NCBI GenBank assembly: GCA_037046735.1
Contig: JBAOHC010000020.1
Span: 78,708 to 142,707, forward strand
DNA from: Candidatus Nanopelagicales bacterium
GTDB lineage: Bacteria; Actinomycetota; Actinomycetes; S36-B12; UBA10799
DNA: 64,000 nt
Reading direction: 5' to 3'
In this document: positions 15,707-17,423 of the stretch, in pieces
Numbering within the stretch: the first letter of the stretch is position 1
How the letters are laid out: every line of letters begins with the position of its first letter
The notes under the pieces: model-generated
The model's database searches: none
Told to the model about the DNA's origin: nothing
What the model saw: only the letters and a program-made list of their open reading frames with translations
Translations under genes and position numbers: made by a program

Positions 15707-16107
15707 TGCAGCTCCTCCATGGCCGTGTCCGGCCTGACACCGACTGTCACACGGGCGTACGGCTTTTGTCCTCCCCCGAAGGGGGTGGGCCGCCGACGGG
15801 GATGCTGATGGTCTTGGCGGACTAGTCGAGTTGCTGCCTGGCTCAGCATGGCCGAAGGGTTCCAGCCTTGAGCACTGCGATCCCGCGCTATGGAACGCAC
15901 CCACGGGCTCCCTGGCCCACCGTCCGCGGTCGCCCCTCGCCGACTCAGAACAGAGCACTCGCGCGCCATCCACAGCCGGACGCACGGCACAGGTGGACCC
16001 GTTCGTCCGCGGCACAGCGGTTCGGCGCGGCGGAGCCCGAAACGACGAACCGCTGTACCCGAGACGAACGCCTGGGCACCGGACGAACGCCTGGACTCTG
16101 CTGGCCA

Positions 16108-16536
16108 CCTCCGGCGACCTCCTCCCAAGCCCCGCAGAACAACCAATCCCAAAACAAAAGACCCGGCAAGCCTGCCGGGTCTTCCGTTTTGGGGTGAGTG
16201 ACGGGAGCCGTCGCGCCCCTCCGGGACGCTCCTCCCAAGCCCCGCAGAACAACCAATCCCAAAACAAAAGACCCGGCAAGCCTGCCGGGTCTTCCGTTTT
16301 GGGGTGAGTGACGGGAGCCGTCGCGCCCCTCCGGGACGCTCCTCCCAAGCCCCGCAGAACAACCAATCCCAAAACAAAAGACCCGGCAAGCCTGCCGGGT
16401 CTTCCGTTTTGGGTGTGGTGACGGGAGCCGTCGCGCCCCTCCGGGACGCTCCTCCCAAGCCCCGCAGAACAACCAATCCCAAAACAAAAGACCCGGCAAG
16501 CCTGCCGGGTCTTCCGTTTTGGGGTGAGTGACGGGA
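16108..16536. repeat. 110-bp tandem repeat, about 3.9 copies, each = tRNA-His 3' 17 nt + terminator hairpin + GC-rich spacer
   Basis: Unit starts at 16121, 16231, 16341 and 16451. Copies of tggggtgagtgacggga (reverse complement of the tRNA 3' end) at 16190, 16300, 16410 (variant) and the genuine one at 16520. Period not divisible by 3. Confidence 0.9.
16488..16513 (-). terminator. intrinsic terminator of tRNA-His (first of four identical copies)
   Basis: aagacccggca-ggct-tgccgggtctt, an 11-bp stem, followed on the minus strand by ttgtttt. Identical hairpins at 16378-16403, 16268-16293 and 16158-16183. Confidence 0.65.
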
Positions 16537-16596
16537 CTTGAACCCGCGACCACCTGGACCACAACCAGGTGCTCTACCAGCTGAGCTACACCCACC
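16520..16596 (-). tRNA. tRNA-His (GTG)
   Basis: 77 nt GGTGGGTGTAGCTCAGCTGGTAGAGCACCTGGTTGTGGTCCAGGTGGTCGCGGGTTCAAGTCCCGTCACTCACCCCA. Cloverleaf folds by hand: G-1 pairing C73 (His identity), anticodon loop TTGTGGT, TTCAAGT T-loop, encoded CCA. Confidence 0.92.
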
Positions 16597-16721: not shown

Positions 16722-17423
16722 GTGCCGATCGTCGCAGGTACCGTGGCCAGCGTGTCCGAGGTCATCCGCAGTTACCACGCGCGCCGGGGCCGCCTGTCGC
16801 CGAACCAACGACTGGCGCTGGCTGAGCATGCCGACCTCGACCTGGCGAACTGGCCAGATCCCCTCGATCTCGATGCTGTGTTCAAGCGCCGGGCGCCGCG
16901 AGTGCTGGAGATCGGAAGCGGGCTGGGCGACACCGCACTGCATCTGGCCGCGACGCACCCCGAGACGGACTACATCGCGGCCGACGTGCACACCAAAGGC
17001 ATCGCCCGCACACTGCTGCAGATCGAGGACCAACAACTGACCAACCTGCGCGTGTTACACGAAGACGCCCTGGACTTCCTCACACGACGCCTGCCTGCGC
17101 AGAGCCTGCAACAACTCCTCGTGTTCTTCCCCGACCCTTGGCCGAAGGCGCGTCATCACAAGCGCCGCCTGGTGCGCCGCGACTTCGCACTGGCCGCGGC
17201 CCGCGCCTTAGTGCCCGGCGGCGAACTGCACCTGGCCACCGACATTGCCGAATACGCACAGGTGATGCGCGAGGTGTTGGACCGACAACCTGCGATGCGC
17301 AAGACGTACGACGGCCCGCGCCAGCCCGACCGGCCACGCACGAAGTATGAGTCAGCTGGCGAACGCCAGGGCCGTCACGCCATTGATCTGGTGTACCTGC
17401 GACAGGCACCATCGACATCATGA
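16722..17423 (+). CDS. trmB: tRNA (guanine46-N7)-methyltransferase
   Basis: LEIGSGLGD SAM motif and the FFPDPWPKARHHKRRL signature; 233 aa. Confidence 0.85.
   Translation: MPIVAGTVASVSEVIRSYHARRGRLSPNQRLALAEHADLDLANWPDPLDLDAVFKRRAPRVLEIGSGLGDTALHLAATHPETDYIAADVHTKGIARTLLQIEDQQLTNLRVLHEDALDFLTRRLPAQSLQQLLVFFPDPWPKARHHKRRLVRRDFALAAARALVPGGELHLATDIAEYAQVMREVLDRQPAMRKTYDGPRQPDRPRTKYESAGERQGRHAIDLVYLRQAPSTS

Follow-up and report, generated by a model that had tools for sequence, protein, structure and literature searches.

In a Candidatus Nanopelagicales bacterium, the tRNA-His(GTG) gene's 3′ end is repeated head to tail directly behind the gene, each time together with a terminator-like hairpin. 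What kind of element copies the tail of a tRNA gene several times over? The array lies in a 64,000-nt window (contig JBAOHC010000020.1, positions 78,708 to 142,707), and the genome of the window (G000) is a 31-contig draft of 3.23 Mb that is 94% complete. Repeats linked to tRNA genes have been known in Escherichia coli since 1978, without an accepted function or origin. On balance, we think it probable that the array is a tandem amplification of one actinobacterial tRNA-linked-repeat element, found behind single-gene tRNA and transfer-messenger RNA (tmRNA) loci, which would give a read-through RNA and be the counterpart of the tRNA-linked repeats (TLRs) of E. coli.

A preliminary description of the window reported tRNA-His followed by about four tandem 110-bp units, and ARAGORN, TRF, and a repeat search all bear this out. 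ARAGORN identified tRNA-His(gtg) as the sole tRNA in the window. TRF called an array with a period of 110, 3.9 copies, 98% matches, and a score of 826, and the repeat search recovered the same four copies at 110-bp spacing. The array begins at the final base of tRNA-His, in the same orientation as the gene, and only a 93-nt unit lies between tail copies. Copies of the 17-nt tail (TCCCGTCACTCACCCCA) and of the hairpin were located, in agreement with the statement that each block recopies tail and terminator, and one tail copy is mutated (TCCCGTCACCACACCCA), as had been noticed. No open reading frame (ORF) with a family match lies inside the array, which is noncoding as described. Two details needed correction. 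The terminator stem, given as 11 bp, has about 20 pairs and begins within the CCCA of the tRNA, so that its 3′ arm ends as an antisense copy of the tRNA end. Furthermore, the supposed plain GC-rich spacer is a conserved, structured module. Four stacked terminators had been suggested, and four 20-bp hairpins are indeed predicted on the minus strand; terminator prediction gave 8 overlapping terminator-like calls in total versus 1.6 expected.

Read on the tRNA strand, a unit consists of the tail (X), hairpin H1, a decayed antisense copy of the tail (X^c), and a core (GGAGGAG, a hairpin, and GACGGN), after which the next tail copy follows (Table 1). Tail X spans tRNA positions 60 to 76. The 3′ arm of H1 closes with an antisense copy of the last 4 to 8 nt of the tRNA, and the module-bearing tRNAs of G000 have hairpins of −39 to −65 kcal/mol overlapping the tRNA end. 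The last 10 nt of X^c (GCGGG-G-CTTG) are the complement of T-loop positions 56 to 59, position 60, and the 3′ T-stem strand. The most distal unit has a different, older hairpin and has lost its tail copy; GACGGC and the tail are degenerate there (AGCAGAG TCCAGGCG...), and the hairpin is of the type carried at tRNA-His by the relatives G023 and G014. GGAGGAG was considered as a Shine-Dalgarno sequence, which it resembles, yet no start codon follows it in any locus read, and this assignment was rejected.

Further copies of the tail and spacer had been envisaged elsewhere in the genome. For the tail this did not hold, as no further tRNA-His tail occurs anywhere else in G000; for the spacer it did. 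An exact-motif scan placed the 30-nt core at a single other site, behind tRNA-Gly(CCC) (C31:35354-35383; 30/30 nt identical), where the same core precedes the tail of tRNA-Gly(CCC) instead. The scan found no occurrence of the core motif in G000 beyond module loci. Tail copies follow 7 of the 40 tRNA genes of G000 (His, Gly-tcc, Gly-ccc, Pro-ggg, Arg-cct, Ala-cgc, and Ser-cga), and the same kind of module precedes the tail copies at each of the seven. A covariance model built from nine modules (R1) scored the cores of the array at 72 to 78 bits and added three loci: tRNA-Ser(gga), a Ser-type array at the start of contig C12, and a module with the tail of tRNA-fMet that sits 52 kb away from the tRNA-fMet gene. 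In total, G000 contains about 10 loci with 1 to 4 units each.

The same model was applied to related genomes. Within the family, R1 matched 28 of 39 genomes, among them every one of the 13 others in the genus, with 2 to 17 matches per genome, many of them in tandem with periods of 54 to 113 nt. At the level of the order, 20 of 41 well-assembled genomes had matches, spread over 6 of 9 families. Every R1 match is situated behind a tRNA or tmRNA gene, at the end of a contig, or within a partial tRNA copy. In other genera, the layout is the same at tRNA-Pro, -His, -Ala, -Ser, and -Gly and at tmRNA genes. An exact-pattern scan of one genome per species returned 108 stretches, mostly from Actinomycetota of several orders, with some chance matches elsewhere; 80 loci (87 matches) were inspected. 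Carriers include Terrabacter, Humibacillus, Intrasporangium, Flexivirga, Branchiibius, Ruania, Demequina, Aeromicrobium, Kineosporia, and Nanopelagicales metagenome-assembled genomes; cultured strains with module loci include Intrasporangium oryzae NRRL B-24470 and Branchiibius cervicis NBRC 106593. For 57 of the 87 matches, a same-strand tRNA whose tail is copied lies upstream, 50 to 85 nt away (or that distance plus one repeat period). The complete genome of Humibacillus xanthopallidus SLM-627 has five module loci. A phylum-wide sample of 150 genomes gave no match under strict filters that left only 37 candidates per genome to be scored. Members of the family are conserved across genera and orders, with each one built anew from the tRNA at its own locus. 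Searches against Rfam at E ≤ 1 and E ≤ 10 returned only spurious microRNA and leader matches, and we could not find this tail-copying family described in Rfam or by literature search. As a separate observation, the tRNA-Pro(ggg) locus of G009, a genome assigned to another genus of the family (L064, C109), is identical to G000 C27:376600-377200 over about 430 nt, including terminator, module, and downstream hairpin; this could reflect a recent transfer or a contig cross-assigned between bins.

To characterize the module further, its folding was compared between strands and across the family. The variable stretch that separates GGAGGA from GACGG folds as a hairpin, 79 distinct versions of which were compared. 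On average, their folding energy amounts to −12.6 kcal/mol for the sense strand, −11.0 kcal/mol for the antisense strand, and −6.9 kcal/mol after shuffling (sense versus antisense, p = 2e-9). In an alignment of 109 modules, which was fitted to the model and thereby somewhat favors structure, 92% of cells are paired, versus 73% when shuffled and 30 to 56% when the partners are slid; two-sided changes number 184 versus 62 expected, and 11 of 13 pairs show compensatory change. Among non-Watson-Crick cells, G·U outnumbers A·C by 74 to 23 (p = 2e-7), so the strand that folds is the tRNA-sense strand. A duplex palindrome bound by protein would not show such a bias. The core is closed by a T-stem-like stem of 6 bp, in which the antisense copy pairs with the tail copy, and the base past the 5′ strand of this stem shows covariation with position 60, T60 being matched by A and, in tRNA-Gly(tcc), C60 by G. 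Thus, the module folds on the tRNA-sense strand, closed by a T-stem-like stem, and its hairpin covaries freely. The hairpins commonly show tandem G·A mismatches, a recurrent GAGGAACGA apex, and C(GNA)G triloops, the last at the apex of 24 of the 79. Two other folds were tried and rejected. A tRNA-like minihelix, formed by pairing of the spacer with the acceptor portion of the tail copy, gave similar duplex energies for own and foreign acceptors (p = 0.9), and a fold of the whole array as RNA was uninformative, being dominated by pairing of palindromes between units. The strand-biased folding, taken together with the E. coli precedent, suggests that the modules are probably transcribed by read-through from the tRNA gene and then processed.

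Both boundaries of the copied sequence lie in the T loop. Identity to the tRNA starts one nucleotide past GACGG in 90 of 93 nonredundant modules, and since the six tRNA bases that precede this point are T-loop positions 54 to 59, the start is position 60. The five nucleotides before GGAGGAG are the reverse complement of T-loop positions 56 to 60 in 95 of 98 modules. This holds for six T-loop types, five of them within G000. The antisense tail continues upstream in decayed form (12 of 15 nt at Arg-cct; about 15 of 17 at Ser-gga), and these upstream sequences align better to the antisense of their own tRNA than to that of another (p = 1.5e-12).

These boundaries, together with the palindromes, raise the question of whether the units are simply DNA. 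The array could be a selfish, nontranscribed structured repeat of the REP, MITE, or PATE kind, spread by templated copying and gene conversion, with no RNA product that matters. Possible routes of copying would include a staggered T-loop break and, at the terminator palindrome, synthesis by fold-back or template switching. In favor of this reading, sense and antisense copies of the tail do alternate, with palindromes between them, the 4-nt offset between positions 56 and 60 is what a DNA end with a 3′ overhang of 4 nt would give on its two strands, different tRNAs of one genome have identical cores, modules sit within nonfunctional partial tRNA copies, and C(GNA)G triloops are frequent. However, the elements are confined to stable-RNA transcription units and always in sense orientation, and the single-stranded GGAGGAG and GACGG are constant over several orders, which suggests a conserved host partner. 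Neither a Y1 HUH transposase (PF01797) nor a reverse transcriptase was detected in G000, and both were therefore set aside as makers of the module. The E. coli counterparts, moreover, are demonstrably transcribed and processed (PMC8144298). We regard a selfish DNA repeat as quite unlikely.

If the array is an amplified TLR-type element, how did it come to hold four units? The preliminary description raised the possibility of a variable-number tandem repeat, and such behavior is evident from relatives, which hold 0 to 3 units at the same tRNA-His. Several have no module there (e.g., G015, G018, G020, and G024), G014 and G023 have one full and one decayed unit, G016 has one truncated unit, and G019 has three units. 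Within a species, the units have identical terminators and hairpins, which vary from one species to another. The three proximal units of G000 carry the core of tRNA-Gly(CCC), including a GGA loop variant that is absent from the Gly modules of other species. Cores are exchanged between loci within a genome, and copy number differs between species. The ancestor of the G000 tRNA-His locus may have had one or two units, of which the proximal one would have had its core replaced from the Gly locus, by gene conversion or reinsertion. The 17-nt tail copies would then serve as direct repeats, between which unequal recombination or replication slippage could add or remove whole 110-bp units. We infer that amplification took place in this way, between tail copies. 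In G000 the outcome would be three young, identical units and one old, decayed unit, and the same process would keep the units of one species alike.

The number of units could also be an artifact of assembly, the true locus having one or two. G000 is a draft in 31 contigs, three of the units are identical over 110 bp, and another array of the family lies at the start of contig C12, so such repeats do break assemblies. Nevertheless, the private variant in the mutated tail copy and the differing terminal unit anchor at least three distinct units, and the independent assemblies of relatives show 2 to 4 units at various tRNAs. We consider an artifact very unlikely, and the main finding would be unchanged even with a single unit.

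Partial tRNA 3′ ends are also what integration leaves behind, and the preliminary description offered att scars as one explanation. In this account, the units would be relics of recombination sites. Core and tail copy would form the arm-proximal end piece of small or cargo-less islands inserted by a tyrosine integrase at the T loop or 3′ end of tRNA and tmRNA genes, and with each new insertion beside the intact tRNA, older copies would be displaced outward. A direct repeat of the 3′-terminal 17 nt of a tRNA is what P4-type integrases leave, tRNA and tmRNA genes are the targets, the oldest unit is the most distal, the downstream sequence varies between species as at island hot spots, and G000 encodes more than 10 tyrosine recombinases. 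None of these recombinases adjoins a module, however. Neither an integrase nor cargo was detected inside or beside the array in a Pfam search of the neighboring genes (sulfatase, amylosucrase, and TrmB), as the preliminary description had noted for the space between the copies, and no integrase lies by the other module loci of G000. No additional tRNA-His tail that could mark a second junction is present in the genome. Finally, the same core recurs at about 10 tRNA loci and order-wide, always rebuilt from the local tRNA.

Genuine islands within the genus allow a direct comparison. In G024, a genuine 4.6-kb island at tRNA-His ends in GCGGGTTCAAGTCCCGTCACTCACCC, which comprises the 5′ T-stem strand, an intact T loop, and the tail; the core is absent. 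In G000, a 52-kb island apparently occupies tRNA-fMet (C27:699558-751660), with a weak integrase-like match at its tRNA end (702137-702703). A 13-nt junction repeat (CTGCCCCCGCCAC) at 751551 lies upstream of H1 and the module, so that the module falls outside the island, on its chromosomal side. The G016 island, 18.6 kb long, is in tRNA-Gly(CCC) (C11:181033-199748; L219, L220). Behind the intact tRNA are a terminator of the CTGACCAG type, arm repeats (GTTCGTTGCAC), and an ORF whose N terminus is integrase-like, but no module; at the far end, a partial tRNA (positions 27 to 74) is followed by H1 and the module. Thus, the real att sites of G024 (attR), G016 (attL), and G000 lack the core, and in both G000 and G016 the module is on the chromosomal side.

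Searches of mobile-element sequences were consistent with these junctions. The viral contigs, 2.9 million in number, yielded no module: the 15 pattern matches there were all chance matches that lacked every other module feature. BLAST of the array and of a typical module returned nothing from phage and plasmid collections. The suggestion that the spacer might match a known mobile-element end thus found no support in the three collections. A BLAST match in Streptomyces rimosus was rejected as a chance likeness within coding sequence. In addition, the insert of 30 to 40 nt between inverted half-sites does not fit an overlap region of 6 to 8 bp, the covarying stems with their G·U strand bias and freely varying hairpin are unexpected for a duplex binding site, and the Gly(CCC) module is as conserved across the genus as the tRNA itself while terminator and spacer diverge.

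Terrabacter sp. MAHUQ-38 provides a link between modules and att sites. Its relic att sites are partial tRNA-Ser copies that carry the module, so that modules can sit in nonfunctional tRNA fragments. One site is empty (the tail, followed by TTCGCCTGCGGAACGCCGGTCAG), and two are filled (tail, H1, antisense tail, core, and tail, followed by TTCACCTGCGGAAACGCCGGTCAG), the sites being otherwise homologous. This shows that a unit is gained or lost as one discrete piece, with duplication of the tail. The pattern could be accounted for by gene conversion between homologous sites alone; mobility at the DNA level is also possible. Partial tRNA-Ser copies with arm-type repeats and a module bracket a 7.5-kb segment with Pnkp cargo, as island relics would. 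On balance, we judge it unlikely that the units are relics of recombination sites. The bracketing copies, of tRNA-Ser(cga), lie at L224 (G222 C12:367800-377200), each with arm-type repeats (AGTCTCAGTTCTAGTCTCAT) and a module. Between them are genes for an RNA repair enzyme of the Pnkp type (PF16542, 1.7e-182), for an ANTAR/GAF regulator, and, at the place where an integrase would be expected, for a 410-amino-acid protein without a Pfam match. At least five partial tRNA-Ser copies are dispersed in the MAHUQ-38 genome.

Several observations weigh against the proposal that the array is an amplified, transcribed element of the TLR type. Sequences downstream of the Gly modules show no synteny between species, unlike the upstream side, and in this they resemble island hot spots. 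The complementarity to positions 56 to 59 has no partner inside the module, since the sense copy starts at position 60; it may reflect either inverted copying of the gene at the origin of the module or pairing with the tRNA itself. By its appearance, H1 should terminate transcription efficiently, and the module may then receive few transcripts. In DNA, C(GNA)G triloops have exceptional stability, and given how frequent they are in the hairpins, the folded molecule could be a single DNA strand. Lastly, homology with the E. coli TLRs was undetectable by either covariance model. The Rfam model RF00391, which has a gathering score of 45 bits and scored E. coli controls at 133 to 137 bits, gave no match at E ≤ 10 on the tRNA-His (L030) and tRNA-Gly (L026) loci, and R1 on the E. 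coli tyrT locus gave E ≥ 1 with filters off.

The features of the array and its nearest downstream gene are listed in Table 1.

Table 1. Coordinates in the window of the tRNA-His gene, the parts of the array behind it, and the next gene downstream
Feature	Position	Strand	Basis or remark
tRNA-His(GTG) gene	16520-16595	minus	ARAGORN; Rfam tRNA model, 66 bits
Whole tandem array, 3.9 units × 110 bp	16108-16536	minus	TRF and repeat search
Tail X, last 17 nt of tRNA-His, TCCCGTCACTCACCCCA	16520-16536	minus	T-loop position 60, 3′ T-stem strand, 3′ acceptor strand, discriminator, and CCA
Mutated tail copy X′ of unit 1, TCCCGTCACCACACCCA	16410-16426	minus	
Intact tail copies, TCCCGTCACTCACCCCA	16300-16316, 16190-16206	minus	Begin 1 nt past GACGG, at tRNA position 60
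Hairpin H1 (stem of ~20 pairs, GGCT/GCTT loop, U-rich 3′ arm)	16478-16523	minus	Predicted intrinsic terminator
Identical copies of H1	16368-16413, 16258-16303, 16148-16193	minus	
Decayed antisense tail X^c, TGGGATTGGTTGTTCTGCGGGGCTTG	16456-16481	minus	
Further copies of X^c	16346-16371, 16236-16261, 16126-16151	minus	
Conserved core M: GGAGGAG, hairpin GCGTCCC-GGA-GGGGCGC, GACGGC	16427-16455	minus	
Further copies of core M	16317-16345, 16207-16235	minus	
Terminal decayed module: GGAGGAG and hairpin GGTCGCC-GGA-GGTGGCC	16103-16125	minus	
Sulfatase gene, next gene downstream of the array	13352 to ~15650	minus, as tRNA-His	Pfam PF00884, 3.7e-63

Other neighbors identified by Pfam are an amylosucrase-like gene and, upstream, genes for TrmB and LamB/YcsF. 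TrmB is a tRNA m7G46 methyltransferase, and its gene (16722-17423, plus strand; PF02390, 6.6e-47) is divergent from tRNA-His. Its position beside a tRNA gene is probably coincidental. The gap between the array and the sulfatase gene (16000-16094) contains three direct repeats, (C)AGGCGTTCGTC / GCGGTTCGTCG, about 20 bp apart, as well as an inverted copy (GGACGAACGG) and an 11-bp stem, and has the look of arm-type or operator repeats. The GTTCGTTGCAC repeats that flank the real island junction in G016 (L024, L219) resemble them. Elsewhere in G000, ARAGORN called a second tRNA-His(gtg) of 86 nt with an atypical 3′ end (C26:47451-47536), beside two integrase genes (C26:43722-45784). This call is likely false or represents a degenerate gene within an island.

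In G000, a CCCCTG(A/G)TCAG stem motif is frequent in the terminators of module-free tRNAs and in those past the final tail copy at Pro-ggg. G016 has such a hairpin on the island side of a junction, so some of the seemingly native tRNA terminators of G000 may be derived from islands. A second terminator past the last tail copy was considered as a general feature of the family and rejected: the hairpin excess is modest (−27.1 versus −23.2 kcal/mol; p = 6e-4) and holds at some loci only.

What does the family add to the known repeats? Here a second family has the same design, is unrelated in sequence, is widespread in Actinomycetota, covaries strongly, and has very sharp T-loop boundaries, so that the design seems to be general and not a peculiarity of enterobacteria. 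The family provides a candidate RNA family for Rfam with cultured hosts (Humibacillus, Terrabacter, Intrasporangium, Flexivirga, Branchiibius, and Demequina), and it offers clues to mechanism in the antisense copy that reaches position 56, the sense copy that starts at position 60, and the pair of empty and filled sites. It also carries a warning, as such arrays can be mistaken for att scars when islands are called and can break short-read assemblies. Tentatively, the actinobacterial modules and the E. coli TLRs might form one general class that is built from the tail of a stable RNA and not inserted as a fixed sequence, but we hold this broader claim to be doubtful. In one version, a dedicated mechanism would make the units, and the boundaries 55|56 and 59|60 would mark a break in the T loop with a 4-nt 3′ overhang. 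In another, the antisense arm of a read-through RNA would pair with positions 56 to 76 of its own tRNA, and such an RNA could control the folding, 3′-end maturation, or quality control of that tRNA.

Three known systems invite comparison. Direct repeats at attL and attR of islands in tRNA and tmRNA genes, with sublocations at the T loop and 3′ end, were reportedly surveyed by K. P. Williams in 2002. Like these, the modules duplicate the tRNA 3′ end from the T loop, use tRNA and tmRNA genes as hosts, and stack behind one gene; unlike these, they have no integrase or cargo between copies, and a structured core abuts every copy. REP and BIME sequences are small palindromic intergenic repeats that are mobilized by Y1 (RAYT) transposases. 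Shared with them are a short hairpin with conserved flanks, multiple copies, tandem clusters, and strand-specific folding. The modules differ in being tied strictly to tRNA and tmRNA tails, in containing the local target sequence in both orientations, and in occurring in a genome, G000, in which no Y1 transposase was detected.

The closest resemblance is to the TLRs of E. coli, which comprise RtT/rttR behind tyrT-tyrV and RrA, RrB, and RrF behind rrnA, rrnB, and rrnD (PMC8144298, citing Egan and Landy, 1978, and Rudd, 1999). There are 22 copies in ten loci, with 1 to 5 per locus, and each ends in 18 to 19 nt of the upstream tRNA or rRNA (PMC8144298). They are transcribed by read-through and processed but have "no known function," and the authors suggested that the repeat is an RNase E processing signal (PMC8144298). 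Our literature search found no other papers on bacterial tRNA-linked repeats. At tyrT-tyrV of E. coli K-12, the units are 178 nt long, and each ends in 19 nt of the tRNA-Tyr tail and includes a partial antisense copy (GGGGAAGGAT).

The two families differ in several respects. The actinobacterial units are 44 to 113 nt long instead of 178 nt and have the core GGAGGAG, hairpin, and GACGGN; their boundaries lie at positions 60 (sense) and 56 (antisense) instead of 58 and 59 in RtT; tmRNA genes are among their hosts; and expression has been shown for E. coli only. In other respects, the designs coincide. Both kinds of repeat stand directly behind a stable-RNA gene in the same orientation, with 1 to 5 tandem units per locus at several loci per genome, and some members of both are placed between two terminators. 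In both, the unit ends in the 3′ end of the upstream gene, over 18 to 19 nt in E. coli and typically over 17 nt here, with a range of 13 to 20 nt and, across all modules of the family, extremes of 8 and at least 20 nt. Finally, in the Rfam consensus of RtT, GGGGAAGGAT pairs with the tail copy and closes a GA-rich structured domain, and in the actinobacterial modules, antisense and sense tail copies likewise form the stem that closes such a domain.

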